From IMG/VR virus record IMGVR_UViG_3300025809_000016: 20,000 nucleotides of DNA. The stretch is one strand, 5' to 3'. Within the stretch, counting starts at the first letter, position 1. Each line of letters opens with the position of its first letter. Origin of the DNA: an uncultured virus (IMG/VR IMGVR_UViG_3300025809_000016) (taxonomy: Duplodnaviria; Heunggongvirae; Uroviricota; Caudoviricetes). Positions 1,953-17,636 of this stretch are shown piece by piece. The position numbers were made by a program, and so were the translations under genes. The notes beneath the pieces were generated by a model. It was not told where the DNA came from. It saw only the letters and a program-made list of their open reading frames with translations, and made no database searches.

Positions 1953-1990
1953 GATTCCCCTGACCCCTAAAAAGGTTGGGGGATTCTTAT
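1953..1990 (+). terminator. Probable intrinsic terminator after nrdJ
   Basis: Stem TCCCCTGACC (1956-1965) / GGTTGGGGGA (1974-1983) with two G-U pairs, followed by TTCTTAT. Confidence 0.6.
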
Positions 1991-2062
1991 GTTAAATAAA
2001 CCGAGGCGCAATGCCTCTATAAATAAACGCCTACCGCAACGGTGGCTAAAGGAATTAGATTA

Positions 2063-2299: not shown

Positions 2300-2381
2300 A
2301 CCGCAATTCAGGTGCAAAGCCTATCTATTGAATACCAACCTAATCGTTTTAAAACAAAATAAACTTACAGGAATAGACTAT

Positions 2382-3416: not shown

Positions 3417-3430
3417 AGGAGAAGTAAAGT

Positions 3431-4645
3431 ATGGATGCACAATTAAAAGTTAGTAGAGCAGTAACCCGTCTTGCTTGTACAAACCCGTTCTTCGGGTCTT
3501 GTCTAATGCAGTTGGGAACTATAGAGGATCCTACTTGTTCTACTATGGCTACCGATGGCACAACTGTGTACTGGGGTAGGGCCTTTGTAGATACGCTGAC
3601 TGAGGAGGAGGTAAGGGCTGTGTTGTGTCACGAGGTGATGCACGTAATCCTTATGCACTGCCAAAAGCAGCCTGCACGATACTCTGATTTTAAACTTACT
3701 AACGTAGCTATGGATTACACGATTAATCCTGAGTTGCGGAACAGTGGGCATGTGTTGCCCAAGGGTGTCTTGTTCGATGAGTCTGGAAAGACTGCAGGTT
3801 GGACTTGGCAGGCTATCTACTTGTTACTGGAGGAAGTAAAGAAACAGCAGGAGGGTGAAGGTCAGCCCTCTGAGGGTGGAGAAGATGGAGAAGGCCTAGA
3901 TGGTTTCACAGCTTCAGAAATAGAAGCGATGGCTAATGACATAGCCAATGCTGAAGACCACGTAGGGCCATCTAAGAAGTCGGATTCTGAAACAGAGACC
4001 ACTAAGCAGAAGATACAGGATATGGTTGTCAAGGCTGTTACTACTGCTGAAGGCTCTAAGACTGACTTGCCTGCGGGTATGGAACGTATCTTAGAGGAGA
4101 TCAGAGAGCCGAAGCTGCCTTGGAATGAATTCTTCCAGAACAAGGTAAGAGCAAAGTTCCCAGATGATTTCACCTATCGTAAACCTAACAGGAAGTTCTT
4201 CGCAGATGATCTCTATCTGCCGACTATGTCAGGTGAGCGAGCAGGGACAATCGTGTTAGCTTTGGACACCTCTGGATCAGTACGTGATGAGGAGTTAGCC
4301 GCTTACTGTGGAGAGGTCAACTGTATTATTAATGATCTTAAACCAGAGAAAGTATACCTGATGACGTCTGATTGTAGGGTAGCACAGGTACAGGAATTTG
4401 AAGGTGACATGTGGTTTGATGTCGCTGACTTTAAAGCGTTAGGTGGTGGAGGTACTTCTTTCAGACCGGTATTCGAATACTTGGATGAGAAAGAGATAGC
4501 TGTAGACCAACTAATTTACTTTACTGATATGGGTGTGTATGCCTCGGATTACCCGACAAAGCACCCTGATTTTCCTGTTATATTTGTATCAACTGAACCA
4601 AATCAAACAGCCCCATTTGGGGATGTAGTCTACTTAGAACTATAA
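3431..4645 (+). CDS. Putative metallopeptidase + vWA domain protein (DUF2201-like)
   Basis: TMATDG, HEVMH (HExxH), NVAMDYTIN, acidic Gly-rich linker, vWA MIDAS DTSGS, GGGGTSFRPVF and YFTD. It lies directly downstream of the AAA ATPase with an AAGGAG RBS. Confidence 0.9.
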   Translation: MDAQLKVSRAVTRLACTNPFFGSCLMQLGTIEDPTCSTMATDGTTVYWGRAFVDTLTEEEVRAVLCHEVMHVILMHCQKQPARYSDFKLTNVAMDYTINPELRNSGHVLPKGVLFDESGKTAGWTWQAIYLLLEEVKKQQEGEGQPSEGGEDGEGLDGFTASEIEAMANDIANAEDHVGPSKKSDSETETTKQKIQDMVVKAVTTAEGSKTDLPAGMERILEEIREPKLPWNEFFQNKVRAKFPDDFTYRKPNRKFFADDLYLPTMSGERAGTIVLALDTSGSVRDEELAAYCGEVNCIINDLKPEKVYLMTSDCRVAQVQEFEGDMWFDVADFKALGGGGTSFRPVFEYLDEKEIAVDQLIYFTDMGVYASDYPTKHPDFPVIFVSTEPNQTAPFGDVVYLEL

Positions 4646-4655
4646 GGAATATTAT

Positions 4656-5801
4656 ATGAATAGTCTTAACATATCTAGAGATTTAGAAGCACAAAGCTAC
4701 TTCGCAAGCACTATCCAGCCTCTCTGTGCTCTAATTAATCAGCTGAAGTTCTCTGAAGTCTTTGATAACGAAACGGGGAAGGTATTACCCCATATCGCGA
4801 AGGATCTGTCAATCGCTGAGATATCCGCAAGAGAGCATTTAGAGATAGTCTGCTATCGCGAGAAAGTATCTGTAGACGCGGTATTAGAAATCATAGAGCG
4901 CAGGTTAGACCGTACTAGGGCTAAGTTTGCTGATATGTTTCCTACTCCCGCAGATGCCCAAGATGACTTTCAGGCCATTGCGTCAGAGCTGTTTGACTAC
5001 GGAAGCAGATATGGCTACCGGAGGTTTCTGATGCACGATGTAGACTCTGAGCAAGTTGATGAGCTGTTGCTACTCTTACCTAGAGATGGTGCTACTGTGA
5101 AGCAAGGCTTGGTAGGGCTTTACGTGAAATCTCTTAAGTCTCTGATCAAAGCGCTTGTAAGCTTCACTGCTATAAAAGAGCTGATGCCTACTTACCGTGA
5201 AATAGCGGTAAAGCGGAATGAGACCTTTCGAAAGCTTACTAAATCCAAAGAAGATCTGACGGATGGATTTTTCGGGTCTTGGTCTCTATCAGGTAGGATA
5301 AGCATGAGACGCGAACCTACTTCAAAGATAGAGTTGACTGAGCTAAGAAGAAATGGAGCAAGACGTGTCTCTGTCAGCGATGAGTCTCTGGATAATATGG
5401 GAGCTAGTAATATTAAGATCGCTGCTGACGCTCTATCTTTCCGGACTAAGAAGACAGTGATTACAGATGTAAGGGAATGTAGCGTTGAGGAAATTGCAGC
5501 TGCTGGTAAGAAGATGAAGTTCAAAGGTAACACAAGTGACGTAAGGGTCTACGAGATAACACAAGGCTTCGCTATGGACACTCTTGCATTAGAGACCAAT
5601 GCTTCTCAAACTCACGGTCTTAACACTCGACTAGAGAAGATGAAGAGGAACACTATTGACCTTAGAGGTTACTTTATTACAGTACAGGAAACACCTACGA
5701 TGCATTTCCAATCTGTGACGTTATCGATCGGTCGAGGCTTAGGCTCTACCACGAAGCGCATAGTTGGCGAAGTAATGGACACACTGACTCTATCATTCTA
5801 A
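4656..5801 (+). CDS. Hypothetical protein (381 aa), co-operonic with the AAA/vWA pair
   Basis: Long ORF with AAGGA RBS, 10 nt after the vWA gene stop. No motif recognised. Confidence 0.8.
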   Translation: MNSLNISRDLEAQSYFASTIQPLCALINQLKFSEVFDNETGKVLPHIAKDLSIAEISAREHLEIVCYREKVSVDAVLEIIERRLDRTRAKFADMFPTPADAQDDFQAIASELFDYGSRYGYRRFLMHDVDSEQVDELLLLLPRDGATVKQGLVGLYVKSLKSLIKALVSFTAIKELMPTYREIAVKRNETFRKLTKSKEDLTDGFFGSWSLSGRISMRREPTSKIELTELRRNGARRVSVSDESLDNMGASNIKIAADALSFRTKKTVITDVRECSVEEIAAAGKKMKFKGNTSDVRVYEITQGFAMDTLALETNASQTHGLNTRLEKMKRNTIDLRGYFITVQETPTMHFQSVTLSIGRGLGSTTKRIVGEVMDTLTLSF

Positions 5802-5816
5802 ACTAAGGAAATAACT

Positions 5817-6095
5817 ATGTACACTATTACTCACACACATGCACAGATGAGCGCACTTCTTAACCAGAGTGCTAACGCTGAAATCCAGTTAACCAGTAAG
5901 ATAGCAGACCTGTTATCATCTCGCTCGGCGGCAGTTTCCTTCATCCAGACTACTCAGCTCCAGTCAGTTGTGAACTCTAATCAGCGTTCTATTTATGCGA
6001 TGGACTTGCAGCTCACTCAGGCTAGGAAGGAGTTAGATGTGGCGCAGTATAACTATTACTACGCTAGTAAGCAGTTAGCTACCCTAAACAACTAA
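5817..6095 (+). CDS. Hypothetical protein, likely coiled coil
   Basis: AAGGA RBS and Gln/Ala/Leu-rich helical pattern. Confidence 0.7.
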   Translation: MYTITHTHAQMSALLNQSANAEIQLTSKIADLLSSRSAAVSFIQTTQLQSVVNSNQRSIYAMDLQLTQARKELDVAQYNYYYASKQLATLNN

Positions 6096-6112
6096 ATCAA
6101 CTTTTATCAAAC

Positions 6113-6136
6113 TGATCACACTAAAGAACAACCAAC
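6113..6136 (+). promoter_or_regulatory. Phage-specific promoter-like motif, copy 1
   Basis: TGATCACACTAAAGAACAACCAAC, intergenic. 6114-6136 is 22/23 identical to 14895-14917, and the CACTAAAG core matches the T3 promoter core. Confidence 0.7.
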
Positions 6137-6162
6137 TTAATATAAATCAAAGGAATACAAAT

Positions 6163-6456
6163 ATGAGTAATGATACTTTACGAGCACAAACAATCGAACT
6201 GATGACTGGCTTTATGATGGATAACATCTATGCTGGGCAGAATATCGATACAACTGAACTCCAGAACACTGCTGCACTGTACTACGACTTGGTTCTTGGT
6301 GCAAGGGATGCTATTGCTGCCGAGAATGTAATCAAGGAGAAGCAAGCGGTTGACGCGGTCAAGGCCGGTTATGTCGATGCTTCCAATCCTACACAGGTGG
6401 ACTTGATGGGTGGTGCTCGGGCTGTAGAGAAATCTACGTTCTATAAAGGAGAGTAG
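6163..6456 (+). CDS. Hypothetical protein
   Basis: AAGGA RBS; first gene after the promoter-like motif. Confidence 0.75.
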   Translation: MSNDTLRAQTIELMTGFMMDNIYAGQNIDTTELQNTAALYYDLVLGARDAIAAENVIKEKQAVDAVKAGYVDASNPTQVDLMGGARAVEKSTFYKGE

Positions 6457-6457
6457 T

Positions 6458-6634
6458 ATGGGTTTCCAAGACCAAATGGCTGAACTGAGTAGGCGCATTG
6501 TCTCTTTGGAACAGCAGGTGATCTTCTTAAAAGGAGAGATAGCACTGAGAGATCAGAGAGCTATGAGTGAAGAAGGTGTTGAGCTGCTTAAAGCGGTTGA
6601 GCAAATGAATCAGGAAAGAAGGGAGCAAAAGTAG
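6458..6634 (+). CDS. Small coiled-coil hypothetical protein (58 aa, not in ORF track)
   Basis: MGFQDQMAELSRRIVSLEQQVIFLKGEIALRDQRAMSEEGVELLKAVEQMNQERREQK*. AAGGAG RBS; it fills the gap between neighbours exactly. Confidence 0.75.
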   Translation: MGFQDQMAELSRRIVSLEQQVIFLKGEIALRDQRAMSEEGVELLKAVEQMNQERREQK

Positions 6635-6635
6635 T

Positions 6636-6959
6636 ATGAGTGAACACACTTGTCTAGATGTGGATTTCGACGTGACAACAGGGAGCCGCTGTGTTGCCTG
6701 TAGAGAACGTTCAGAAGCTCACACAGTATGGTTAGCCACTAGGGAGTTTCCTGTCTTTGACCACAGCCCTGCTGATGTGATCAGGTACATTCACGAAGGG
6801 GAGATGGAGATACAAGCGAGGATTATCGACAGTTTCCGTGAGAAGTATTGGGAGCAGAACCGCAGGTGTTATGAACGTGATACTACGATAGCTAAGCTAA
6901 AGAAGGACATCCTAGTGTTAGAACAAGCCATCGACTGGTTTGTAAACTCTAGTGAATAA
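6636..6959 (+). CDS. Hypothetical protein (N-terminal CxxC, C-terminal coiled coil)
   Basis: GGGAG RBS, tightly packed with neighbours. Confidence 0.7.
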   Translation: MSEHTCLDVDFDVTTGSRCVACRERSEAHTVWLATREFPVFDHSPADVIRYIHEGEMEIQARIIDSFREKYWEQNRRCYERDTTIAKLKKDILVLEQAIDWFVNSSE

Positions 6960-7281
6960 GGCAGAAGATTTTAAGCCTGCTTTACAGTACAGTACAGAAG
7001 AACTTATTAAGAGGTTACGTCTGAACATCATACTTCACTCTTGTGTCTATTATCAATTTGATGAAAGCATATGGAGTGATTTCGATTTCGACAGTAAGTG
7101 TAAACAGTTGGTCGCGCTATTAGCGGATCAGCCTAATACTTACAGTGACCGCTTCGATAAGTTCTTTGTAGACTGGGATGGAGAGAGTGGCTTTCACTTC
7201 CCTCACCGAGATCCTTGGGTGTACAGTAAAGCAGAAGAATTAATCAGACTAAACAAACTATATACAACAGGAGAGAAATAG
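6952..7281 (+). CDS. Stand-alone NAD+-dependent DNA ligase N-terminal (Ia / Nlig-Ia-like) domain protein
   Basis: IKRLRLNIILHSCVYYQFDESIWSDFDFDSKCKQLVAL matches the LigA Ia pattern (LR..I..H...YY..D....SD.xY/FD....L..L). There is no KxDG adenylation motif. Confidence 0.75.
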   Translation: MNKAEDFKPALQYSTEELIKRLRLNIILHSCVYYQFDESIWSDFDFDSKCKQLVALLADQPNTYSDRFDKFFVDWDGESGFHFPHRDPWVYSKAEELIRLNKLYTTGEK

Positions 7282-7282
7282 A

Positions 7283-7375
7283 ATGGGATTATTCTTTGTA
7301 ATAGGAGCCGTCTTCTTTGGCGCGCTTCTTATACCAGTTTATGTAATTGATCTATACACTAAAGGGGAGAGGTAG
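7283..7375 (+). CDS. 30-aa single-pass membrane protein
   Basis: MGLFFVIGAVFFGALLIPVYVIDLYTKGER*, with AGGAG RBS. Confidence 0.6.
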   Translation: MGLFFVIGAVFFGALLIPVYVIDLYTKGER

Positions 7376-7459
7376 GTGGATGACGGTACCTTTTACTGCT
7401 TACTTTATATCGCCTTTGTAATAGCTCTGTCAGTATATGAGATATCTAAAGAGGATTAA
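7376..7459 (+). CDS. 27-aa single-pass membrane protein
   Basis: GTG start abutting the previous stop, GGAGAGG RBS, MDDGTFYCLLYIAFVIALSVYEISKED*. Confidence 0.5.
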   Translation: MDDGTFYCLLYIAFVIALSVYEISKED

Positions 7460-7463
7460 AACT

Positions 7464-7679
7464 ATGGAAATGAATGAGATGGTAATGTGTTTCGGGTTTG
7501 TCTTACTGACCCTCACGAGTGTCATATCAGTACCTTTCGTAGCATCGTATGTACTAACGTTGATTAGCAGGCCACATTACCGCAAGTGTTGTAGGTGTGA
7601 AAAGCTTAAGCCGTTAGAGTTAACGCATATGCTGTGTGAGGATTGTATAGATGAATTAGTTAACACAGAGGAATACTAA
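7464..7679 (+). CDS. Small membrane protein with C-terminal zinc ribbon
   Basis: GAGGA RBS before ATG 7464. TM segment, then CCRC...CEDC. Confidence 0.65.
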   Translation: MEMNEMVMCFGFVLLTLTSVISVPFVASYVLTLISRPHYRKCCRCEKLKPLELTHMLCEDCIDELVNTEEY

Positions 7680-8086
7680 TGAACATAGACATATTAACAT
7701 CCGTACTTGAGCACGAAGGTTTCAGAGAGAAGCCTTACCAATGTTCAGAAGGTGTTTGGACTATTGGACACGGGTTGACATACTTGACCGAGAGTGAGTC
7801 TGAAGAGATTGTAGCTAATCGCTTAGAAGACTTGTACGACAGATTAGAAGAGAAGCACACCTGCTTAGAGAGCTACAAGTACGGCACGAGGGTGAGGATC
7901 CTCAATGTCCTTACTGAGATGGCATTCCAAATGGGTTGGACTGGCCTTCATAAGTTCGTTAAGATGTTTGAAGCTATCTCTAACCACGACTTAGGTCTGG
8001 CAGCAGTAGAGATGTTAGATAGTAAATGGGCTAAGCAGACTCCCGGTCGAGCTAATGGTCTTGCACGTAAACTAAGAACCGCTTAA
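7679..8086 (+). CDS. T4-type (GH24) phage lysozyme / endolysin
   Basis: HEGFREKPYQCSEGVWTIGHG (E-x8-C-x5-T), EMAFQMG, AAVEMLDSKWAKQTPGRA. Confidence 0.92.
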   Translation: MNIDILTSVLEHEGFREKPYQCSEGVWTIGHGLTYLTESESEEIVANRLEDLYDRLEEKHTCLESYKYGTRVRILNVLTEMAFQMGWTGLHKFVKMFEAISNHDLGLAAVEMLDSKWAKQTPGRANGLARKLRTA

Positions 8087-8101
8087 ATAAGGAATACTAA
8101 A

Positions 8102-8341
8102 ATGAACACAACTATAATCACTAAGCAAAACCCTTTCGGTGGAGAGCCTCGAACGATCGAAGTCAACCTATCACCAGAAGCGTATGAGCAAGCAGCAGCA
8201 GCGTGGAAAGGAGGTTTGTTAATACAACAAGCATTCCCCACCTTGTCCGCTGATGATCGTGAGTTTATTCTTACCGGACACACCCCTGAAGATTGGGAAG
8301 ACATGTTCGGAGAGGATGATGAGGAAGACGATTACATTTAG
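8102..8341 (+). CDS. Phage hypothetical protein with acidic tail
   Basis: AAGGA RBS. The W..G.LIQ.AFP.LS.DDREF..TG.TP.DW motif is one I recall from small phage proteins of unknown function. Confidence 0.8.
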   Translation: MNTTIITKQNPFGGEPRTIEVNLSPEAYEQAAAAWKGGLLIQQAFPTLSADDREFILTGHTPEDWEDMFGEDDEEDDYI

Positions 8342-8391
8342 GTAGTACCCGCAGTATCTAAACTAAAAATATATTATTAAGGAAGTAAACT

Positions 8392-8952
8392 ATGTACAAT
8401 GAATCACAGCAGGTCGGACAACTTCTTACAGACAGCGCTATCATTATGCTGACAGACGGTTTTGAGCAGGACACTATTATGCCAATCGTGGCTAGAATAA
8501 TGGCTTACAACCTGATGCCTAAAGAGCTTCAGCCTGAGTTCATTACTATGGTTATTAACTCACCGGGTGGCTCTGCGCACTCTTGCTTCCACTTGATCGA
8601 CATTATGAAGACCTCTAAGATCCCAGTGCATACTGTTGCTATGGGTATTACAGCGTCTTGTGGTGTTCTTACTTTGATGGCAGGAGCGAAAGGTCACAGG
8701 TCTGTAACACAGAACACTTCTATCTTGAGTCATACTTGGTCTTGGGGCGCAAGTGGTACTTCATTCGCTCTGGAAGCTGCTAACGTTGAGTTTGAACTTA
8801 GCAACCAAAGGATGATGGCTCACTACAGGAAGTGTACTGGTAAGTCAGAGAAGTATATTACTAAACATCTGGTTGGCCCGACTGATAGTTGGTTGACTGG
8901 AGAAGAAGCAGTGAAACACGGATTAATTGACTTTGTAACGGAGACTTACTAA
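8392..8952 (+). CDS. clpP: ClpP-family (S14) protease
   Basis: INSPGG, MGITASCG (catalytic Ser), ILSH (His), DSWLTGEEAVKHGLID (Asp). Confidence 0.9.
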   Translation: MYNESQQVGQLLTDSAIIMLTDGFEQDTIMPIVARIMAYNLMPKELQPEFITMVINSPGGSAHSCFHLIDIMKTSKIPVHTVAMGITASCGVLTLMAGAKGHRSVTQNTSILSHTWSWGASGTSFALEAANVEFELSNQRMMAHYRKCTGKSEKYITKHLVGPTDSWLTGEEAVKHGLIDFVTETY

Positions 8953-8953
8953 T

Positions 8954-9160
8954 ATGGAAAATATGATTGAAGGTATTGAGTGCATTGGCGAATTTGATTC
9001 TCACACAGAAGGTTGTGTAATCACCTTAACAGATCAGACGATCTACATTTACCAGAACGAGTTCTTCCTGACATGTTGGGAGGAGGCGATTGAAGAACTG
9101 AAGATGGTGTTCAGGTTTGAAGATGGCGAACTACTCTCTCTTGACACACTAAGCTACTAA
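8954..9160 (+). CDS. Acidic hypothetical protein
   Basis: GGAG RBS; fills the gap between neighbours. Confidence 0.65.
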   Translation: MENMIEGIECIGEFDSHTEGCVITLTDQTIYIYQNEFFLTCWEEAIEELKMVFRFEDGELLSLDTLSY

Positions 9161-9169
9161 GGAACCTAA

Positions 9170-9721
9170 ATGACTAATGAATACGAAGACCCGAGTTTAT
9201 CATCGGATGCCCCCAGCATTGACCCTAATGCCACGGAGCCTAAAGCAGTAGAGGGTGCTCACGGAGGCAAACGCCCCGGTGCAGGTCGCCCTAAAGGAAG
9301 TAAGAACCAGTTCTCTAAGCACTCGGTAGATCGACTGAAAGAGCTTGAGTTCGACCCAATGGAAGCTATGGTAGATCTCTATCACGAGACAGCAACGATC
9401 ATTGCCGAGATGGAAGATGTCAACCACCCGAGACGGTATAGCGCACCCGCGTTAGCTGCCTTGATCATTAATAAACAGAAGGTTATCAACGACTTAATGC
9501 GATACGGCTACCGACACGTTCCTGAAAAGATCGAGGTAGAGGCTGTTGAGAAGCAACCGTTCCAGATCAACTTTACAGGCGTGACCCCTAAGGCCGCTGT
9601 TGTTATTGAGCAGTTGGACACAGTAGATGTTGAGCTCCAGCCTGCTAACTTTGACAGTGATGTTGGAGTAGTAGAAACTGTTGAAGACAACTCTGCCCCT
9701 GATGAAGATAAAGAAGACTAA
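9170..9721 (+). CDS. Putative terminase small subunit / AT-hook-like DNA-binding protein
   Basis: HGGKRPGAGRPKGSKN motif, then helical FDPMEAM core and acidic tail, as in many phage TerS-like proteins. No terL in the window. Confidence 0.5.
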   Translation: MTNEYEDPSLSSDAPSIDPNATEPKAVEGAHGGKRPGAGRPKGSKNQFSKHSVDRLKELEFDPMEAMVDLYHETATIIAEMEDVNHPRRYSAPALAALIINKQKVINDLMRYGYRHVPEKIEVEAVEKQPFQINFTGVTPKAAVVIEQLDTVDVELQPANFDSDVGVVETVEDNSAPDEDKED

Positions 9722-9780
9722 TAATTAGGCCGAAAGGCTTTTCCCTATTGATACACTAAACTAACTACGAGAATATAACT

Positions 9781-10116
9781 ATGAAAACTATTAACAAGCA
9801 AGTACAATCACAAACATCTTTCAACTTTGACCAGCGCACTATCTCTGATTTCAACTCTTCAGAACTCGCTCAGTTGGCGCATGACTATTTGTCGTTGATC
9901 GCTAATGGCAAGGGTGCCAGCTTTGGCGCAATTGCTGCGGGTCTTGGTATTAACTACCGAACTGAAAGTCGTGTCTACAAGCTCCTCTTTGCTGTATTAA
10001 GGAAGATGGGTGCAGATGGCAGGCTCGATATGTTCCGGTCTGAAATTGGTAATCGTACTATCTATATGTCTAATGGGAGCTACAACGCTAAGCCTGTTCA
10101 CTACTCAGCAACTTAA
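9781..10116 (+). CDS. Hypothetical protein, possible winged-helix DNA-binding domain
   Basis: GASFGAIAAGLGI...LFAVLRKMGADGRLD followed by a beta-hairpin-like segment. Confidence 0.55.
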   Translation: MKTINKQVQSQTSFNFDQRTISDFNSSELAQLAHDYLSLIANGKGASFGAIAAGLGINYRTESRVYKLLFAVLRKMGADGRLDMFRSEIGNRTIYMSNGSYNAKPVHYSAT

Positions 10117-10130
10117 AGGAACCAAACACT

Positions 10131-10406
10131 ATGATCAATGAACACCCCTACTTTAGTGAAGAATACCTCGCAGCAGCAGCTTTAGCAGCTCAGATCAGGA
10201 TGGATACAGAGGCCTTGACATATGCTAAGAACGCTGCTATCGTGGACAAGAATGCAACCTTGCGCTTTATAGCGTATAACACACACAACGTAGGGAAAGC
10301 CGTGTACAACAAAGTATTAGCGGAGTATGAAGCAGCAGAGACTAAGTCTTCTAACGCTTATATGGCAGCTAAGATGACTGCCTTCAATCGATTATTAGGA
10401 GAGTAA
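10131..10406 (+). CDS. Ala-rich helical hypothetical protein
   Basis: AAGGA RBS. Confidence 0.7.
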   Translation: MINEHPYFSEEYLAAAALAAQIRMDTEALTYAKNAAIVDKNATLRFIAYNTHNVGKAVYNKVLAEYEAAETKSSNAYMAAKMTAFNRLLGE

Positions 10407-11084
10407 ATGTATTTCATATCAGCACCTTTCGGAAACTATATAAAGACGAAAAGCACTATCAGTGTTACAGGTAGCTGGACTCTTGAGCCTCGTCCGGGAT
10501 TAGTAAAGCAAGTCGTGAAGACCTTACGCTATACTAAGACTGGATGGAGGAACAAGATTGGCTTACGTAACAAAGGTATTGACTACGCTGTAGCAAGACA
10601 CAAACGAGGAGATGTGATGAGCCTCGCAGCAGGAGAAGATTGGCTAGGCCTGTATGAGAAGGTAAGCCCTTATGCCAGTGTGGAGATTAATATCAGCTGT
10701 CCTAATTTGGATAAGCAGGTAGGTCAACTGGTGGAGGGTTATGATCTCTGGCCTAAGACAGATCGTGAGTGGTGTATAGCTAAGATCTCACCGTTGGCAG
10801 ATGAGGCCCTCGTTGATCAGTTGGTATACGCAGGCTATACGACTATCCACGCAAGCAACACACTACCTTCTGATAAAGGAGGTCTAAGTGGTAAGCTGCT
10901 GGTACCGTATACTATGAGGCTATTAGACTACATTAATAAGAACCATCCCCACGTAGAGGTCATAGCTGGCGGCGGTGTCACTTGTGAGCAGGATGCAGAG
11001 GACTATATGAACGCAGGTGCGGATCATGTCAGCCTTGGTACTGTTTGCTTTACCCCTTGGAAGATAAAAGGAATAGTAGGATGA
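10407..11084 (+). CDS. pyrD: Dihydroorotate dehydrogenase-like FMN oxidoreductase (minimal, 225 aa)
   Basis: NKIGLRNKG, EINISCPN (class 1 catalytic Cys), AKISP, SNT, GGLSG, IAGGGV, AGADHVSLGT. AGGAG RBS. Confidence 0.82.
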   Translation: MYFISAPFGNYIKTKSTISVTGSWTLEPRPGLVKQVVKTLRYTKTGWRNKIGLRNKGIDYAVARHKRGDVMSLAAGEDWLGLYEKVSPYASVEINISCPNLDKQVGQLVEGYDLWPKTDREWCIAKISPLADEALVDQLVYAGYTTIHASNTLPSDKGGLSGKLLVPYTMRLLDYINKNHPHVEVIAGGGVTCEQDAEDYMNAGADHVSLGTVCFTPWKIKGIVG

Positions 11085-11194
11085 TGCACTTAATAGCAGT
11101 AGCGGCCTTTAACCTGTTGGTTATCGTCGCAGTAATCGGGGTTGTAATAGGCCCTTTCTATGCACGTAAACTTTACAAGGAGAAACAACTATGA
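11081..11194 (+). CDS. 37-aa single-pass membrane protein
   Basis: MMHLIAVAAFNLLVIVAVIGVVIGPFYARKLYKEKQL*. ATGA overlap with pyrD, AAGGA RBS. Confidence 0.6.
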   Translation: MMHLIAVAAFNLLVIVAVIGVVIGPFYARKLYKEKQL

Positions 11195-11289
11195 TAATGT
11201 TGATACTACATGTTGTAGCAATTTGTACTATGCCAGCAGCGTTATTCGTAACGATACCGCTTCACATACTGATAGTGTCTGTCTCTTGA
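11191..11289 (+). CDS. 32-aa hydrophobic peptide
   Basis: MIMLILHVVAICTMPAALFVTIPLHILIVSVS*. AAGGAG RBS and ATGA overlap. Confidence 0.6.
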   Translation: MIMLILHVVAICTMPAALFVTIPLHILIVSVS

Positions 11290-11417
11290 GACTCTTAGTG
11301 GCAGTAGTGTTAGTGTTGCTAGTGGGCTGCGCATCACCCTCTCCCTTTGTATTAGGGGAAGAGGTTCAACCACCAACAGGCTGTAGAGAAGGCCGAGAAC
11401 GAGGAGTAGACTGTTGA
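11286..11417 (+). CDS. Small lipoprotein (43 aa)
   Basis: TTG start overlapping the previous TGA. MRLLVAVVLVLLVG-C lipobox; mature part ASPSPFVLGEEVQPPTGCREGRERGVDC. Confidence 0.65.
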   Translation: MRLLVAVVLVLLVGCASPSPFVLGEEVQPPTGCREGRERGVDC

Positions 11418-11809
11418 GTAATGTAAGTAAGAAGCTACTACAGAAGATCTTGAGGAATGTACATTTCAGGTTTGACTACACCTATGACGATGACCAGTAT
11501 GGCGGTGAGCACTGGCCCGATGTGGATATGCTAGGCGGTATTCCTACTGGTCGAGATGAGTTCAAGGATGACTGTGATGGTTTCGCCTTGATGTGTCGTG
11601 CTAAGTGCAGGGAAGAGGGTATACGTAGTAGGTTGGTATTCTGTAGGACTAGTAACGGAACAGGACATTTGATCTTAGAGGTCGATGGCTATTTGTTAAA
11701 TAACATACACAAGTGGGTTATGACTGCTGATCAGTTGCCTGACTGGGAGTTCATTAGTATTAGCGGATTCGAAACAGGAGACCCTTGGCATAGAATTGTA
11801 ATGGATTAA
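11414..11809 (+). CDS. Transglutaminase-like cysteine peptidase (C93/BTLCP-like) catalytic domain
   Basis: Y..DDDQYG.EHW, DDCDGFA (Cys), GTGHLILEVDG (His), LLNN. GAGGAG RBS before TTG. Confidence 0.78.
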   Translation: MSNVSKKLLQKILRNVHFRFDYTYDDDQYGGEHWPDVDMLGGIPTGRDEFKDDCDGFALMCRAKCREEGIRSRLVFCRTSNGTGHLILEVDGYLLNNIHKWVMTADQLPDWEFISISGFETGDPWHRIVMD

Positions 11810-11865
11810 ACTATAAGAGATAGGACATGGACGAGCATATAATGAACCAATACAAGGACTAGTTA

Positions 11866-12294
11866 ATGTATACATACAAAGTAGAGATAGTAAGAGTAGT
11901 AGACGGAGATACAGTCAGGGTCGATATTGACCTCGGCTTCGATATGTGGATGAGGGATGTATCTGTACGCTTAGAAGGTATAGACACTCCGGAATCCAGA
12001 ACTAGTGATCCAAAGGAGAAGTATTACGGTCAACTGGCTAAAGAAGCACTGGAGGACATCATGGACAATCGTGAGATCTTCTTGAACGTCTCTGGAACTG
12101 GTAAAGATAAGTATGGTCGTATCTTAGGATACTTCTTGTATAAGTCTGACGATGTAAACGCTAATAGCATTAATGCACACTTGGTAGAGATGCACCACGC
12201 TGTCTCTTATTACGGACAGAACAAAAACACTATCAGGGCATCTCATATGCTTAACAGACGAAAGCTAGAAGAAGCGGGGTATGAAGGATGTTAG
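11866..12294 (+). CDS. Thermonuclease (staphylococcal nuclease-like)
   Basis: RVVDGDT, RLEGIDTPE, DKYGRILG. Confidence 0.92.
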   Translation: MYTYKVEIVRVVDGDTVRVDIDLGFDMWMRDVSVRLEGIDTPESRTSDPKEKYYGQLAKEALEDIMDNREIFLNVSGTGKDKYGRILGYFLYKSDDVNANSINAHLVEMHHAVSYYGQNKNTIRASHMLNRRKLEEAGYEGC

Positions 12295-12383
12295 CAGATA
12301 TCGGGATGTTAGTCTTGGCAGTAGTGGTTTTGCTGGTAAACTTATACGTGGTAAAGGTAGCTATATTTGATGAAGATGAATGA
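12288..12383 (+). CDS. 31-aa single-pass membrane protein
   Basis: MLADIGMLVLAVVVLLVNLYVVKVAIFDEDE*, overlapping the nuclease stop. Confidence 0.5.
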   Translation: MLADIGMLVLAVVVLLVNLYVVKVAIFDEDE

Positions 12384-12480
12384 AGAAGATTCGGGATACG
12401 AGTTTACAATAACTATAATCGTTTACACTTGTACAGCATTGGGCTTTATTGCAGGGCTGTTAATAGGAGGAACACAATGA
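12376..12480 (+). CDS. 34-aa single-pass membrane protein
   Basis: MNEEDSGYEFTITIIVYTCTALGFIAGLLIGGTQ*, with ATGA overlap into the next gene. Confidence 0.5.
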   Translation: MNEEDSGYEFTITIIVYTCTALGFIAGLLIGGTQ

Positions 12481-12641
12481 GCAAGGATAGAGTAAAGGAC
12501 ATGAATGATCTACGAGTAAGGATCCAGAAGATGAAGAAGTGGTTTAACGATAATAAGGAGTTCATCGTTGACATCGCTAAGTCTGTTGTGCGAATCATCA
12601 AACAAAAATACAACGAAAGGAAAAACAAGAATGCTAAGTGA
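12477..12641 (+). CDS. Small basic hypothetical protein
   Basis: AGGAGG RBS before ATG 12477 (MSKDRVKDM...). Confidence 0.7.
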   Translation: MSKDRVKDMNDLRVRIQKMKKWFNDNKEFIVDIAKSVVRIIKQKYNERKNKNAK

Positions 12642-12909
12642 TTGTAACATTTACCAGATATCTCAGAGTGTTAATAATGACATCGGTGCCATTGTTGAAG
12701 CTCGGGTGATCGCTCGATCTTCTTATGAAGCAGCTACTCTCCATCCACGTGGTGGGACAGCTGTGTTAAGAAGGGAACAGTGGAGACGTTATGCTTCTGA
12801 TGATCAATGGTGTGCTGTTCAAGACGTCTCAGTGAGGCTTGTGGGTATCGCTTGTTCTAGTGCTAAAGCTGGTAAGGTTATTATGATTGCTAAGGGTAGA
12901 GGAGTATGA
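12631..12909 (+). CDS. Hypothetical protein
   Basis: AAGGA RBS before ATG 12631 (MLSDCNIYQISQ...). Confidence 0.7.
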   Translation: MLSDCNIYQISQSVNNDIGAIVEARVIARSSYEAATLHPRGGTAVLRREQWRRYASDDQWCAVQDVSVRLVGIACSSAKAGKVIMIAKGRGV

Positions 12910-13208
12910 CAGAAGAAGAGAAGGCTAAAGCCAGAGACGAGAAGAATATGGACATCGTGATCAGGTTTGCCAATGATATGCACAGTGTCTCTTTTGATGA
13001 GCTCTATATGGCAGACAGAGAGGCCAACTATGAGTTACGCAATCAGAAGGTCAGGCACAGTTATTTCTGCGCTATGAAGGCAGTAGGTAATACTACTCAG
13101 GAGATAGTAGATAGCTGTGAGATAGACTTGCTCAAGGCTGAAGGAGTCAAGGGAGCAGTGACCACTATGCTAAAGGTTAAACATCAATACACACAAGAGG
13201 AAGTATAA
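12906..13208 (+). CDS. Hypothetical protein
   Basis: GAGGAG RBS and ATGA overlap. Confidence 0.75.
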   Translation: MTEEEKAKARDEKNMDIVIRFANDMHSVSFDELYMADREANYELRNQKVRHSYFCAMKAVGNTTQEIVDSCEIDLLKAEGVKGAVTTMLKVKHQYTQEEV

Positions 13209-13483
13209 TGAGCTGGGACTTAGTATTAGATTTTGCAGAAGATGAAAGTAAGATCACTGTAACACAACTGGCGAGATGTCTTGCTAAGTCTGAGGAGGAT
13301 TTAGAATACGCTAGGGAGATGATGGATCTAGTCAAGAACAAACGTGGTGAGTTCAGCAACAGTGTCTATATAGAGGCCTGTAGGGTTCATCGTGATCTTT
13401 ATAGGTTAGTCGCATCGTTAGGGATTATGCTCGAGCACAAACAACTAGTAGATGACTATGATGCTAAAGGTGAAGATAGTTAG
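13208..13483 (+). CDS. Hypothetical protein
   Basis: GAGGA RBS and TAATG overlap; last gene before the non-coding block. Confidence 0.75.
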   Translation: MSWDLVLDFAEDESKITVTQLARCLAKSEEDLEYAREMMDLVKNKRGEFSNSVYIEACRVHRDLYRLVASLGIMLEHKQLVDDYDAKGEDS

Positions 13484-13496
13484 GTAACGTAAATAT

Positions 13497-13567
13497 GCCC
13501 CACACAACACTATCTTTGCCTAATGGCATTGATGGTGTTGTGTGGGGCCTTTAACGCTTTTTTTTTT
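13497..13567 (+). terminator. Long hairpin plus T10 tract closing the left gene array
   Basis: GCCCCACACAACACTATC (13497-13514) pairs with GATGGTGTTGTGTGGGGC (13531-13548; one G-U). Inner TGCC-TAAT-GGCA, then CTTTAACGC and ten Ts. Confidence 0.75.
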
Positions 13568-13607
13568 GGTATAGTATAAGGTCAGTGTTTAGTCATTATG
13601 CTAACCT

Positions 13608-13727
13608 AAAAACCCAAAAGTAGAGAGTAGAAATCCAAAACTAGATATTTGAAAATCCAAAACTAGATATCCAAAAACTCAAAAGTAGAGAGTGGAAAAT
13701 GATATCTAGATATTTGAAAATCCAAAA
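13608..13727. repeat. Interleaved A-tract direct repeats
   Basis: CTAGATATTTGAAAATCCAAAA perfect at 13641 and 13706; AAATCCAAAACTAGATAT at 13631 and 13653; CAAAAGTAGAGAGT at 13615 and 13680. Confidence 0.9.
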
Positions 13728-13989
13728 TAAACACATAATCATTACTAAAATACCCAGAAGGGCTATGACATCTCATTACAATCTATTCTGTATTTATTAC
13801 CAAACTATACACAATCTTAACACAATCTATCTCTATTTCTCTTAGGAAAATCACTCCATCCTTAATGAAACCATTAACATAATCCCCTCATCCTTAACAC
13901 CCTACATACCATAATCATACCATATTATGTTTAAGGTTATGTTATAGTTATGTGTTAAGGTTAGGTTATAGGGGATGATTAAAGACAAT

Positions 13990-14118
13990 ATAGATGAGGC
14001 ATTAAGGACATTAAGGCCATTAATGAGGGGGTTATATGGCATACATGGGCATAGGTGGGTATAGATGGCATAGATGGCATAGATGAGGCATTAATGGGCA
14101 TTAATGGCATTAATAGCC
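13990..14118. repeat. Degenerate 9-11 bp tandem repeat array
   Basis: Units ATAGATGAGGC, ATTAAGGAC, ATTAAGGCC, ATACATGGGC, ATAGATGGC x2, ATAGATGAGGC, ATTAATGGGC, ATTAATGGC. Confidence 0.85.
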
Positions 14119-14143
14119 CTAAGTCACTTGAACCAAGAATTTA

Positions 14144-14160
14144 TTCTATAGAGTGATCAA
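14144..14160 (-). promoter_or_regulatory. Phage-specific promoter-like motif, copy 2 (antisense)
   Basis: Reverse complement reads TTGATCACTCTATAGAA. Confidence 0.65.
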
Positions 14161-14649
14161 TCGTATCTCTATGAAATGTAAGGTGTTTGTTTAGGGATAA
14201 ATACTAAGAAATCTGGGAAATGGTTAGTAAAGACTTATCATAATCACATAGGACATGGGGGAATCTAATCCATAAGTTACAGATTTGATGGGTCTAGATA
14301 GGTGGGAGCATTAGGGACATTCTTGGGCATTCGTGGTCATTGGTGCCACTTTGTTTATCCTCTCCAAAATCTGAGAAGAACAGATCACTATCTAATCGCG
14401 TGCGAAAAGTGATTATTATGCCTATAAGGGATTTTATCAAGTCGTTCCCACAAAGCCACGTATAACCACGGATGCTCTTTTTATGGTACACTCTTTCATC
14501 TATGACCAACAGTATCACATACACCACATCTGCCCCACCCATACACTAAGGATCATCGATGCCACCATTGCCCAGAGGTGGCCACTATGGAGCACTCATG
14601 AACACTAATGCTATCGATGCGGGGTATATTCGTGTGGATGAGAGAATAG

Positions 14650-14724
14650 GGAGCATAGGTGAGCATAGATAATTTACGAGGGATTGGTGGCATTGGTGGA
14701 CATAGGTGGTATTGGTGGCAGGGG
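14650..14724. repeat. Short G-rich repeat array
   Basis: GAGCATAG x2, then ATTGGTGG / ATAGGTGG x4. Confidence 0.7.
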
Positions 14725-14893
14725 TGAAGTTAGGCAAGTGTAGTCTCGATGCCCCCCATTGGGCCCTTTTCAAAAATGGATACCTGATCCATCTTGTGTG
14801 CAAAAAAATCGATTTTGAGAGAGGACTTTTTTCACGAGATTTTATCACTGAGAATGTGGCGATAAACCTTATAATACATAACAGTATGTTGAT

Positions 14894-14917
14894 CGATCAC
14901 TCTAAAGAACAACCAAC
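14894..14917 (+). promoter_or_regulatory. Phage-specific promoter-like motif, copy 3
   Basis: CGATCACTCTAAAGAACAACCAAC, upstream of the AGGAGG RBS of the GIY-YIG gene. Confidence 0.7.
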
Positions 14918-14952
14918 CCCTAAACTCACTCGCCCCACCAAGGAGGCCACTA

Positions 14953-15732
14953 ATGACAACTATGCCACAAGAAACACACATGCTCTATCGCTGGTCTCGC
15001 TCTACGGGAGAATACTACATCGGTATCCACTCAGGAACCAACCCTGACACTGATGGCTATATTGGCTCTGGTGTTTTGTTTTTGAAGAAGTTCGATAACA
15101 CTCCGAGAGAACAATGGACAAGAGAAGTTATCTTCTTTGCTACCAGAGAGCTTGCAGAGAACATAGAAGCGTTCATCGTTGATGAAGATACCCTTGATGA
15201 CCCTCTGTGCCTCAACCTTGTCATCGGTGGTGGTAAAGGTTCAAAAGGAATGAAGGTGTCTGATGAAACCAAGGCAAAGATAGGCGCAGCTCAATTGGGC
15301 AGGAAGCGCTCTGCTGAAACCAAGGCGAAGATGTCTGCTGCTATTAAAGGTAAAACCTTGGGCAGGAAGCACACTGATGAAGCCAAGGCAAAGATGTCTA
15401 TTGCTAACAAAGGTGCTAATAACTCATTCTACGGCAAAACACACACTGATGAAACCAAGGCCAAGATATCCGCTGTTAAGAAAAGCCAGAATAAGAAGAT
15501 GCCTGATGAACAGAAAGCGAGGCTATACGCTATCCACAAGGGCAGCAAGCAAACGGAAGAAACTAAAGCTAAGATAGGCGCAGCTCACAAAGGTAGCAAG
15601 CGTACAGAAGAAGCTAAAGCCAAAATGAAAGCAGCAGCAGCCCTCAGATACCCTTGTGCTCACTGTGATGCTATGATGAGCGCATCTAAGATCGCCGTTC
15701 ACCACAACGACAAATGTAAACACAAACCCTAA
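14953..15732 (+). CDS. Free-standing GIY-YIG (Seg-like) homing endonuclease with NUMOD3 repeats
   Basis: LYRW...YYIGIH...DGYIGSG...REVI...E...CLNL..GG nuclease domain; about 7 (H/R)(T/S)xExKAK(M/I) repeats; C-terminal CAHC...HHNDKC. AGGAGG RBS. Confidence 0.88.
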   Translation: MTTMPQETHMLYRWSRSTGEYYIGIHSGTNPDTDGYIGSGVLFLKKFDNTPREQWTREVIFFATRELAENIEAFIVDEDTLDDPLCLNLVIGGGKGSKGMKVSDETKAKIGAAQLGRKRSAETKAKMSAAIKGKTLGRKHTDEAKAKMSIANKGANNSFYGKTHTDETKAKISAVKKSQNKKMPDEQKARLYAIHKGSKQTEETKAKIGAAHKGSKRTEEAKAKMKAAAALRYPCAHCDAMMSASKIAVHHNDKCKHKP

Positions 15733-15761
15733 ACTATAACCCACCCTTAAGAGACCCCAAG

Positions 15762-15902
15762 ATGATCACCCTACTATCTAGCTTAATGCTAGCAACCATA
15801 ATATTCGTGAGCTCAGTACTAAACACAGAACAACCACAACCGGGGCGCGTACCATCGTTCTTCACTAAGATCCAAGATACCAAGGAACAAGATGATGGCT
15901 AA
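15762..15902 (+). CDS. Possible 46-aa membrane/secreted peptide
   Basis: MITLLSSLMLATIIFVSSVLNTEQPQPG...DDG*. Fills the gap but has only a weak RBS. Confidence 0.35.
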   Translation: MITLLSSLMLATIIFVSSVLNTEQPQPGRVPSFFTKIQDTKEQDDG

Positions 15903-16518
15903 CACAAATTCAACCGCTACACCCGTACTTGTATCACCCCATACAAAACAACGGTGCAACTTCTGTCAGACCGATAAGCTCTTGAAGGAGTTTGGGAAAG
16001 ACGCGACAAAAAAATTGGGTTGCCGCAACAAATGCAAGGACTGCCACGCTCAGTATCTCAGAGATAGGCGAGAGAAGCATAAGAAACTCCCTCCAACTAC
16101 TTTGCCTTTTGCGTGCTCAACTTGTAAGGTTGTGCTTCCCTTGGAATCATTTAATAAGAACGCAGGAAATTTGAATGGCTATGCAAATGTTTGTAAGGAC
16201 TGCTCGAAGCCGTATAATCAGCACCAATCCTTCAAGAGGTACTCTGTGCGCCGTAAGAGGAAGCAGACGACACTAGTGAAACGTTTTTGTACGAGGTATG
16301 GATGCTCTGTGTGCTCTTATAAAGACAACCCAGCCGCATTGAACCTTTATTCTCCTACAACCCATAAACACATCTCAACAGTGGGCAGTGTTGACAACTT
16401 GAAGAAAGATATCAGGTCATATACTGTGAGATGCCACAACTGCCAAGCAATCCATCTTGACTCTATACCAAGACCCGGTGAAAGAGAAACAAGTACGCAT
16501 AACCCATTCGTTCGATGA
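15892..16518 (+). CDS. Zn-finger repeat protein with degenerate HNH endonuclease domain
   Basis: Two CxxC...F......CKDC repeats, then CSVC.Y....AAL...CHNCQAIH, matching the phage HNH scaffold. AAGGA RBS. Confidence 0.75.
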   Translation: MMANTNSTATPVLVSPHTKQRCNFCQTDKLLKEFGKDATKKLGCRNKCKDCHAQYLRDRREKHKKLPPTTLPFACSTCKVVLPLESFNKNAGNLNGYANVCKDCSKPYNQHQSFKRYSVRRKRKQTTLVKRFCTRYGCSVCSYKDNPAALNLYSPTTHKHISTVGSVDNLKKDIRSYTVRCHNCQAIHLDSIPRPGERETSTHNPFVR

Positions 16519-16526
16519 GCATAGAT

Positions 16527-16564
16527 GCCCCTTATTGACATTCGTGTTGATGAGGGGCTTTTTA
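16527..16564 (+). terminator. Intrinsic terminator
   Basis: 14-bp stem GCCCCTTATTGACA / TGTTGATGAGGGGC (3 G-U pairs), TTCG loop, then TTTTTA. Confidence 0.85.
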
Positions 16565-16659
16565 TCGCAACATCAGTGGCACTAGTGACATCGGTGAAGA
16601 TACCGAAGGCGCGTCTAGCGACTGAGGGGAGTTTTTAGGTTTTGTTCGCGCACAGGAGT

Positions 16660-16676
16660 TTGATCACACTATAGAA
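16660..16676 (+). promoter_or_regulatory. Phage-specific promoter-like motif, copy 4
   Basis: TTGATCACACTATAGAA; the ACACTATAGAA core is identical to the SP6 promoter core. Confidence 0.72.
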
Positions 16677-16712
16677 CGTATTGATCACCCCTTGGTACGT
16701 ATGGCACTAAAA

Positions 16713-16729
16713 TTGATCACACTATAGAA
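16713..16729 (+). promoter_or_regulatory. Phage-specific promoter-like motif, copy 5
   Basis: TTGATCACACTATAGAA, identical to copy 4. A half copy TTGATCACCC lies between them at 16681. Confidence 0.72.
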
Positions 16730-16961
16730 AAACTTCTTGTTATTAATGCTATTAGTGTTATTAATGCACATATATGCCATTGATGACCTTAGGGGGTCTT
16801 ATAACTACCACCACCCTCAATGTCATATATGAAGTTGATCGTTCTTATCCCCTATACCCTATACCATAACCCAATAAAGCCTAGATGCTATAATGACTTA
16901 GAGATCCCCACAAGTGTTTCTCTAAACCACAATCCCCCCCTTCCTTAAAAAGGATAACCTT

Positions 16962-17636
16962 ATGTTTAACTTTGATGGTGCAGATATAGCAACAATCATA
17001 AGTGCAATATTGGGATTAGTGGGTGCCGTTGCAGCTACCCTATTCGGTAAGAAACATCTAGAGAAGAAGGAAGAACTGATTTCTGCTCTCCAAGCCCCTA
17101 CTACAATAGACCACTCCACCTTGTCAGATTTCTTACAAGAGTGGGAAGAATTAGAAGCAAGTGTAAATCATCTTATAAATAACTCAGCGATAGATGCTGT
17201 AGTGATTTCAAAAGCATTTACTATGCCCGGAGGTACCAGTCTTGTTTGGGGTGCCTCTGTCCACTCAACCCCGCCTTATGACAGTTATCTGTCCTTGAAG
17301 GTAGAAAGAGTTGAGCTTGACCAAAGATACAAAGATATAATCGAGGCAGTATGTATGAAAGGCCACTATGTCATTGTTACCAAAGATGAACCAGAAAGCC
17401 TACTTAAAACCAGATACGAAGCAGCTGACATCGCTTTCAGCTCTTGGTTTCATGTTATCGACGAAGATGTCCTCCACGATGTCTCTGTGACTACTACTAT
17501 CGGTTTCCTCAGTCGCGACAAATTCTACAACCCATTTGATAAGTTCCTACTAGCTAGGTGCCAGTCTATTGCTTCACGGGTGAAAGTTGCCGCACTTACA
17601 TTTAACCCTAAAGGACGTATTAGACATGGATATTAA
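16962..17636 (+). CDS. N-terminally anchored membrane protein, candidate holin
   Basis: One TM (IATIISAILGLVGAVAATLFG) + KKH, followed by a ~185-aa alpha/beta soluble domain. AAGGA RBS. The holin call is inference. Confidence 0.5.
   Translation: MFNFDGADIATIISAILGLVGAVAATLFGKKHLEKKEELISALQAPTTIDHSTLSDFLQEWEELEASVNHLINNSAIDAVVISKAFTMPGGTSLVWGASVHSTPPYDSYLSLKVERVELDQRYKDIIEAVCMKGHYVIVTKDEPESLLKTRYEAADIAFSSWFHVIDEDVLHDVSVTTTIGFLSRDKFYNPFDKFLLARCQSIASRVKVAALTFNPKGRIRHGY

Follow-up and report, generated by a model that had tools for sequence, protein, structure and literature searches.

This report concerns a 20,000-nucleotide (nt) stretch of DNA from an uncultured virus (IMG/VR record IMGVR_UViG_3300025809_000016), hereafter called the window, and a short element built on GATCAC and CTA(T/A)AG that occurs five times between its genes. 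The element is very probably a promoter for a single-subunit RNA polymerase (RNAP) of the T7 type, encoded by the phage and with an upstream specificity of its own. Promoters of this class are already well known, and the element would be a further member. The relatives of the phage suggest that it encodes such an RNAP itself, and that a canonical enzyme of ~755 amino acids (aa), rather than a second polymerase fused to a MuF domain, would read the element.

Five copies of the element in the window

The whole window was searched on both strands with GATCACWCTAWAGAA, with up to two mismatches allowed. Five matches were found, each without a mismatch (Table 1), compared with a mean of 0.20 in dinucleotide shuffles; none of 200 shuffles gave five. 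All five copies lie outside the open reading frames (ORFs) of a 35-ORF gene set that leaves 2,997 of the 20,000 bases (15.0%) intergenic (P = 7.6e-5). The five-copy intergenic family proposed in a first-pass annotation of this DNA was thus recovered in full and above the chance level. The arithmetic of the +1 G positions predicted there is also right, whereas the listed copies began at the T or C one base ahead of GATC; the copies are named here by the first base of their core.

Copies 6114 and 14895 have 23 bases in common, GATCAC(A/T)CTAAAGAACAACCAAC, and share the first 11 predicted transcribed bases, GAACAACCAAC. Both are followed by a ribosome-binding site and by the ATG of a gene, 37 nt downstream for gene 6163-6456 and 46 nt downstream for gene 14953. 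Copies 14158(-), 16662 and 16715 carry CTATAGAA instead (CTATAG subclass). The split into two subclasses therefore exists in the sequence of the window, and the placement of 6114 and 14895 shortly before a ribosome-binding site and gene is as the first-pass annotation had it, but its assignment of the CTATAG copies to non-coding DNA did not hold. Indeed, 16662 and 16715 both lead to gene 16962-17636, which begins 288 and 235 nt after them with no ORF between, so that only 14158(-) faces ORF-free DNA, over ~600 nt up to the hairpin at 13497-13548. Among the relatives, CTATAG copies stand directly before genes (G002 35871, G003 17811, G022rc 24733) or 130-190 nt ahead of a small conserved gene. 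Since CTATAG and CTAAAG copies alike precede genes in these phages, two functional subclasses do not generalise.

The bare CTAAAG core is found 21 times on the plus strand of the window, compared with two occurrences of its complement CTTTAG, a strand bias that is probably a codon-usage effect. The bare core is thus common, and the specificity of the element comes from its GATCAC part.

Table 1. Copies of the element and associated features, in coordinates of the window
Feature	Position	Strand	Remarks
Promoter copy 1	6109..6131 (-17 to +6)	+	core GATCACACTAAAGAA 6114-6128, exact match; predicted +1 G 6126
Promoter copy 2	14141..14163	-	core 14144-14158; predicted +1 G 14146; points left
Promoter copy 3	14890..14912	+	core 14895-14909; predicted +1 G 14907
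Promoter copy 4	16657..16679	+	core 16662-16676; predicted +1 G 16674; first of tandem pair; repeat family D7
Promoter copy 5	16710..16732	+	core 16715-16729; predicted +1 G 16727; second of tandem pair, 53 nt beyond copy 4
Upstream half-site TTGATCAC, CTAWAG half missing	16680..16687	+	between tandem copies 4 and 5; TGATCA at 16682
Terminator-like hairpin and T run	16527..16558	+	after HNH gene, ~100 nt ahead of tandem promoters
GIY-YIG/NUMOD3 homing-endonuclease-like gene	14953..15732	+	downstream of copy 3
HNH/endonuclease VII-like gene	15892..16518	+	
ORF-free stretch	13549..14146	-	downstream of copy 2; ATTAATGCC/ATCTATGCC repeats of period 9-10, then 22-nt repeats further on
Hairpin with 24-nt arms (I3)	13497..13548		follows gene 13208-13483; T run on the plus strand
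Leader of the 16962 operon	16727..16961	+	contains ATTAATGC-type repeats

The element in related phages

A scan of viral contigs with a 17-mer of the motif gave 30 loci, and five contigs had two copies each. The 13-mer GATCACNCTAWAG was present in 31 copies across 11 related contigs. Twenty of these 31 sites are intergenic, although called ORFs cover 89.5% of that DNA, and 27 have an ORF on the same strand within 600 nt. In one relative (G006, L164, 1107-1218) a tRNA-Thr(AGT) gene follows 23 nt after a copy whose predicted +1 is 1119. The motif also occurs ~157 nt before the gene of the MuF-fused RNAP (MuF-RNAP) in eight of 79 loci. At these loci, as at a site of G022 that matches the place of window copy 6114, the copies keep their position while the flanking sequence diverges.

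In a position table of 36 collapsed sites, conservation extended from A-rich positions at -17 to -15 and TT at -14/-13 through to A at +2/+3, the flank conservation being partly fixed by the search, whose pattern included TT and AA. Across these sites the element has the form of a T7-group promoter, that is, it is asymmetric, ~23 bp long (-17 to +6) and has a CNCTA(T/A)AG core. Position -6 is free and takes all four bases at the MuF-RNAP loci; the originally proposed consensus, GATCAC(A/T)CTA(T/A)A, restricts this position to A or T, which does not hold in the relatives. No exact motif was found in 113 loci around the canonical RNAPs of more distant relatives, in G018, G019 and G021 (26-35 kb each, no site), or in the roseophage DSS3_VP1, G009 and G012.

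Comparison with the promoters of T7, T3 and SP6

Eleven bases of the motif, ACACTATAGAA, are identical to positions -8 to +3 of the SP6 promoter; the corresponding cores are CACTATAG in T7 and CACTAAAG in T3. The window element resembles these promoters in its length (~20-23 bp), its asymmetry, its A/T-rich far upstream part, a specificity part at about -12 to -8, the CNCTA(T/A)AG core and the G at +1, and also in the occurrence of tandem pairs and of a terminator followed by promoters. It differs from them in that GATC at -12 to -9 matches none of the three, in that -6 is free, and in that it is carried by a lineage of ~75-kb siphoviruses with a tape measure, not by a 40-kb podovirus.

We propose that the promoter element would consist of GATCACNCTAWAG(A/G)A preceded by an A-rich/TT stretch, with transcription starting at the G that follows CTAWA. 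CNCTAWAG would serve as the melting and initiation region, as in the T7, T3 and SP6 promoters, and GATCA at -12 to -8 would be read by the specificity loop of the polymerase. Copy 1 would then drive gene 6163 and copy 3 the homing-endonuclease gene 14953, the tandem pair with its long leader would drive the operon from 16962, and copy 2 would yield a leftward transcript without an ORF.

A bacterial promoter was considered as well and rejected, the motif having no -35 and -10 hexamers at a spacing of 16-18 bp. In a consensus scan, sigma-70-like sites were not enriched in the window (35 vs 37.4 in shuffles); two weak matches (9-10/12) adjoin copies 14158 and 14895. Avoidance of GATC was likewise rejected, for the tetramer is not depleted in the window (94 found vs 75 expected).

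Canonical RNA polymerases and their specificity loops

Apart from the window, this phage is represented by one viral record, G001, which overlaps window positions 1-13250 at 99.9% identity. G001 extends 10 kb further upstream, where genes for a DNA polymerase of the T7 type and for a primase/helicase are found together with an exonuclease region. A motif scan followed by tblastn with RNAP queries led to G022, the closest of the longer relatives. It is collinear with G001 and the window, with aa identities of 64-83% for the DNA polymerase, 66-72% for the primase/helicase, 66% for MoxR and 69% for ClpP. G022 carries four exact copies of the motif on its coding strand, and it encodes an RNAP of 755 aa (L376 3919-6186, minus strand; PF00940, 7.7e-79; T7 RNAP, 1.7e-58). 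Both catalytic-aspartate motifs (DGS.., HDSFG) and the C-terminal FAF align with T7 RNAP, to which the enzyme is alignable over the polymerase part only, in two stretches and with a four-residue insertion in the loop. A copy of the motif lies ~290 nt before this gene, with an 89-aa ORF between. In G022, the DNA polymerase gene follows the RNAP gene at a distance of ~3.3 kb. As G001 begins 35 nt ahead of its own DNA polymerase gene, a homologous RNAP gene in the window phage would fall just outside the known sequence. Moreover, G022 overlaps G002 over 14,276 bp at 99.97%, so that the two represent one phage of ~75.8 kb with seven copies of the motif and both RNAPs.

Other relatives point in the same direction. 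The RNAP of G023, a second motif-bearing contig, is 77% identical to that of G022 and is encoded downstream of a motif copy. All five larger relatives searched (G007-G011) have one strong PF00940 match, in a frame of 722-1,020 aa, and a weak one in a frame of 1,472-1,737 aa, and DSS3_VP1 (NC_055826) has an annotated 'RNA polymerase' (gp080, 42436-44634).

At the place aligned with the specificity loop of T7 RNAP, the enzymes of G022 and G023 both read RVRVRFC(K/R)SNRGKGIQLTIQ, with the four-residue insertion; the loops of G009, G012 and DSS3_VP1 are different. These other phages have repeated motifs of their own. DSS3_VP1 contains ATAGG(G/T)(T/G)(G/A)CGTTAAAG (ATAGGGTGCGTTAAAG) 13 times on its plus, coding, strand, and G009 contains ACC(A/G)GGG(G/T)ACGCTAAAG (ACCAGGGGACGCTAAAG) five times on the coding strand, and both look like the promoters of the respective phages. 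The upstream part of the promoter thus varies with the RNAP loop from lineage to lineage while the TAAAG core is common, although this co-variation is only suggestive because three to four lineages could be compared. The promoters of T7, T3 and SP6 likewise combine a common initiation core with a lineage-specific upstream part. In terms of the T7 structure-function data, the G022 loop keeps the equivalents of R756 and Q758 and has R in place of N748; these residues would fit a kept C at -9 and changed bases at -10/-11.

Some further features of these motifs were seen. The 13 places of ATAGGGTGCGTTAAAG(A)GGGG in DSS3_VP1 include two tandem pairs, two of the five ACCAGGGGACGCTAAAG places in G009 (L234-L237) are followed by a hairpin and ATTAAT-rich DNA, and G012 repeats TCATAAGGGTCAAGTATTTTT five times.

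A possible transcript end at copy 1

Three marine metatranscriptome runs contain relatives of the window. In one of them (X24), a contig of 543 nt covers window positions 6138-6662 and comes from a relative of ~93% identity. Its first 18 letters, which do not align, read ACATGGG followed by GAACAACCAAC, the sequence of window positions 6126-6136. The SMART template-switch oligonucleotide, a string present in 77 papers, ends in ACATGGG on its 3' side, and PMC11846981 shows it immediately attached to the 5' ends of RNA. The complementary DNA (cDNA) would accordingly end, to within one G, at 6126, the predicted +1; we regard this as suggestive, because it comes from a single contig of a ~93% relative. 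Another X24 contig spans a 14895-type copy and is thus not a single promoter-initiated transcript; this observation from the alignment of contigs to the window was not counted as evidence.

The proposal of a single-subunit RNAP with its own specificity is therefore supported both by the relatives (motif and RNAP together in G022, five of five in G007-G011, and DSS3_VP1) and by the cDNA contig at 6126. Several observations weigh against it. There is no PF00940 match in the window or in G001, so that the RNAP gene of the window phage itself was not seen, and no longer record of this phage was found by scanning viral contigs (with ORF 16962 and the G001 DNA polymerase) or metagenome contigs (with the G001 DNA polymerase and PhoH). 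The best match of the PhoH metagenome scan was 79%, and no RNAP was found nearby in that contig (L242). The start evidence is one contig from one sample and from a ~93% relative, for copy 6114 only, with an adaptor reading of seven letters, and contigs are poor witnesses of RNA ends. Eleven of the 31 relatives' sites lie inside mechanically called ORFs, several of which are short or doubtful, and copy 14158(-) has no gene to drive.

The element might instead be bound by a regulator or by a replication or packaging protein, as an operator or iteron, and not mark a transcription start. It does contain two short palindromes, TGATCA and CTATAG, and three copies are found in a repeat-rich non-coding region that is a possible origin or genome-end junction. 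However, the element as a whole is asymmetric, with one orientation to the downstream genes at 27 of the 31 sites, the CTAAAG copies have no second palindrome, the copies are spread genome-wide ahead of genes and a tRNA, and the cDNA end of the X24 contig would fall on the predicted +1. We consider a binding site of this kind improbable, and a promoter remains our preferred interpretation.

Which polymerase would read the element

The lineage has a second T7-family polymerase. In G002 (L035, 11701-16149), a MuF/SPP1-gp7 minor-head domain is joined to a C-terminal T7-like RNAP domain (Phage_Mu_F, 1.8e-14; RNA_pol PF00940, 3.1e-7; phrog_414, 4.6e-24; T7 RNAP in the PDB, 2e-5), and the versions of the relatives have ~1,470-1,490 aa. 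Both catalytic Asp motifs align with those of T7 RNAP. DSS3_VP1 gp108 (NC_055826, 21242-25633) carries a polymerase domain that is 56% identical to that of G002. This MuF-RNAP is present in 79 viral loci; its annotation in isolates mentions only head morphogenesis or a minor head protein.

A virion-carried MuF-RNAP, injected with the DNA and independent of host RNAP, might read the motif, either as its sole reader or, acting first, jointly with the canonical enzyme. Besides the aligned catalytic motifs of the protein, the phage represented by G002 and G022 has a motif copy ahead of its canonical RNAP operon (G022rc 16455), so that another polymerase must transcribe this operon first, unless host RNAP does. 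G002, G004 and G005 have promoter pairs 0.2-0.7 kb from a contig end. On the other hand, the loop-equivalent of the MuF-RNAP is nearly the same in phages with the motif and in those without it (G018, G019, G021), whereas the loop of the canonical RNAP is distinctive in both motif-bearing contigs that encode one (G022, G023). In addition, the motif has no hairpin of the N4-early-promoter kind, and the gene of the MuF-RNAP, a late gene, has a copy upstream as well. A role of the MuF-RNAP as reader thus appears less likely than not. Our interpretation leans to the canonical RNAP, because its loop is distinctive in the motif clade and that of the MuF-RNAP is the same with or without the motif.

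Phage N4 offers a precedent for a virion polymerase. Its virion RNAP is injected with the DNA and starts transcription without host RNAP, and its early promoters are short hairpins with a stem of 5-7 bp and a 3-nt loop. The present lineage likewise encodes two polymerases of the T7 family, of which one is part of a virion-type protein. Unlike in N4, the carrier domain is MuF/SPP1 gp7-like and not of the gp50 architecture, the fusion is ~1,480 aa long and not ~3,500, and the motif is not a hairpin, with no inverted repeat beyond the 6-bp palindromes and no conserved stem. According to Iyer et al. 2017 (PMC5512222), N4-like virion RNAPs are confined to N4-like phages. It is tempting to extend the comparison to an N4-like programme, independent of host RNAP, in which the injected MuF-RNAP would initiate at these promoters. 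In that case the divergent CTATAG copies and their ATTAATGCC repeat leaders, located where the contigs of relatives end, would form an entry and early control region, and perhaps a transcription-primed bidirectional origin, possibly on DNA that contains deoxyuridine (dU) as that of the Naomiviridae does. We put this forward as speculation that is more likely to be wrong than right by a wide measure.

The repeat-rich region around copies 2, 4 and 5

Copies 14158(-) and 16715(+), each with ~250 nt downstream, form inverted repeats (I1, I2, I6, I11; 13900-14170 vs 16700-16970) that bracket the GIY-YIG/NUMOD3 and HNH genes. The same divergent promoter layout with HNH-like genes between is found in G003 and G024, and copy 2 is 83% identical over 53 nt to its homologue in G003. 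This arrangement, together with the 23 bases that copies 6114 and 14895 have in common, might be taken to mean that the copies are functionless leftovers of a small element, mobile or duplicated, that is tied to homing endonuclease genes. Such an origin seems hardly credible to us, given that the flanks beyond the core are unrelated in most copies and that the same core is kept in phages with 60-80% identical proteins, also at places without endonuclease genes.

By synteny, the region corresponds to the end of G022 and the start of G002, and since the contigs of these relatives end there, it may be a genome end or a region that is hard to assemble. It could act as a leader, as an array of protein-binding sites, as an origin or as an end region. 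The tandem pair also recalls the primary origin of T7, where the tandem promoters phi1.1A and phi1.1B are followed by A/T-rich DNA. In the window, too, the two promoters, 53 nt apart, are followed by A/T-rich repeats, and the phage has a T7-type DNA polymerase and primase/helicase. The window pair differs in that it would double as the promoter of the next operon.

Downstream of 14158(-), no convincing minus-strand ORF of at least 25 aa was found, and the hairpin at 13497-13548 is the first strong one that leftward transcripts from copy 2 would reach. Repeats of period 9-10 (GGCATNNNTG on the plus strand, ATTAATGCC in the direction of transcription) occur downstream of the CTATAG copies, at 13990-14120, 14315-14346, 14640-14720 and 16738-16796. 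Comparable repeats follow the CTATAG copies in G002, G004, G005, G006, G024 and L242, and another form is present in G009. A 22-nt unit, AAAATCCAAAACTAGATATTTG, which has palindromes within it, is present 5.5 times at 13609-13727 in the ORF-free stretch. A structured RNA below the CTATAG copies was considered but found no support, the fold z-scores being weak (-1.03 for the first 297 nt after copy 2 and -1.85 for the 16962 leader). Rfam gave no match at E up to 1 for the regions downstream of these copies, and a tRNA search of the window found none.

Two further observations come from the alignment of contigs to the window and were again not counted as evidence. In X23 and X24, parts of 13658-14849 reached a contig depth of 24-30, compared with 3-8 elsewhere, which might mean that the non-coding region is abundant in RNA. 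No contig of X11, of X23 or of the DNA run X2 covered 14675-16675, which might reflect relatives without these two endonuclease genes.

Identity of the phage and implications

The window comes from a phage. Its genes include those for a B12-type ribonucleotide reductase (RNR, NrdJ-type), a MoxR-like ATPase with a DUF2201/vWA partner, a lysozyme, a ClpP-like protease, a small DHO_dh-fold protein, an SNase-like nuclease, the GIY-YIG/NUMOD3 and HNH endonucleases, DUF1353 and PhoH. No near-identical match was present in the phage collection, in which the RNR protein was at best ~51% identical to proteins of Streptomyces phages. G001 and the window together (30 kb) are collinear with DSS3_VP1 at 48.7-57 kb, at 40-57% aa identity. 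The phage is a marine siphovirus related to the Naomiviridae, the family of DSS3_VP1. The two share the order of the DNA polymerase, exonuclease, primase/helicase and RNR genes; DSS3_VP1, as the relatives of the window phage, encodes a canonical RNAP and a MuF-RNAP, and it has its own repeated coding-strand motif ending in TAAAG. They differ in that DSS3_VP1 lacks the GATCAC motif and has no match for the NrdJ-type RNR, MoxR/DUF2201-vWA, ClpP and other genes of the window phage. That the genome is unlike those of classical T7 relatives, as had been stated at the outset, is borne out by the ~75-kb siphovirus lineage with its tape measure and by the MoxR/vWA, ClpP, DHO_dh-fold and NrdJ-type RNR genes.

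The Naomiviridae roseophages DSS3_VP1 and DSS3_PM1 have genomes with dU in place of deoxythymidine (PMC8323127). By word search, the main text of that article has no 'RNA polymerase' and one unrelated 'promoter', and the main text of a single-particle study of 2025 (PMC12669031) has neither term; a phage promoter motif is discussed in neither. A full-text literature search, with subscription journals and supplements outside its reach, returned no paper on these promoters or on the MuF-RNAP fusion.

Our study provides a testable promoter consensus for an abundant and poorly studied marine lineage, the relatives of the Naomiviridae, with which operon maps of these genomes can be drawn from sequence alone. 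The RNAP and its promoter are moreover a candidate orthogonal pair, with the initiation core of SP6 and a different sequence at -12 to -9. A role of the MuF-fused RNAP could explain how transcription starts in such phages, some of which have dU-substituted DNA.

Some further genes deserve mention. In the window phage, a 159-aa ORF at 1521-2000 of G001 splits the gene for the DNA polymerase (L038, 36-2608), and the RNAP gene of G023 (L378, 4449-7379) is interrupted by ~820 nt; both interruptions are probably insertions of a homing endonuclease, intron or intein. Finally, the 225-aa dihydroorotate-dehydrogenase-fold protein at 10407-11084 and the MoxR-like ATPase with its DUF2201 metallopeptidase/vWA partner at 2328-4645 are unusual for a phage replication module.

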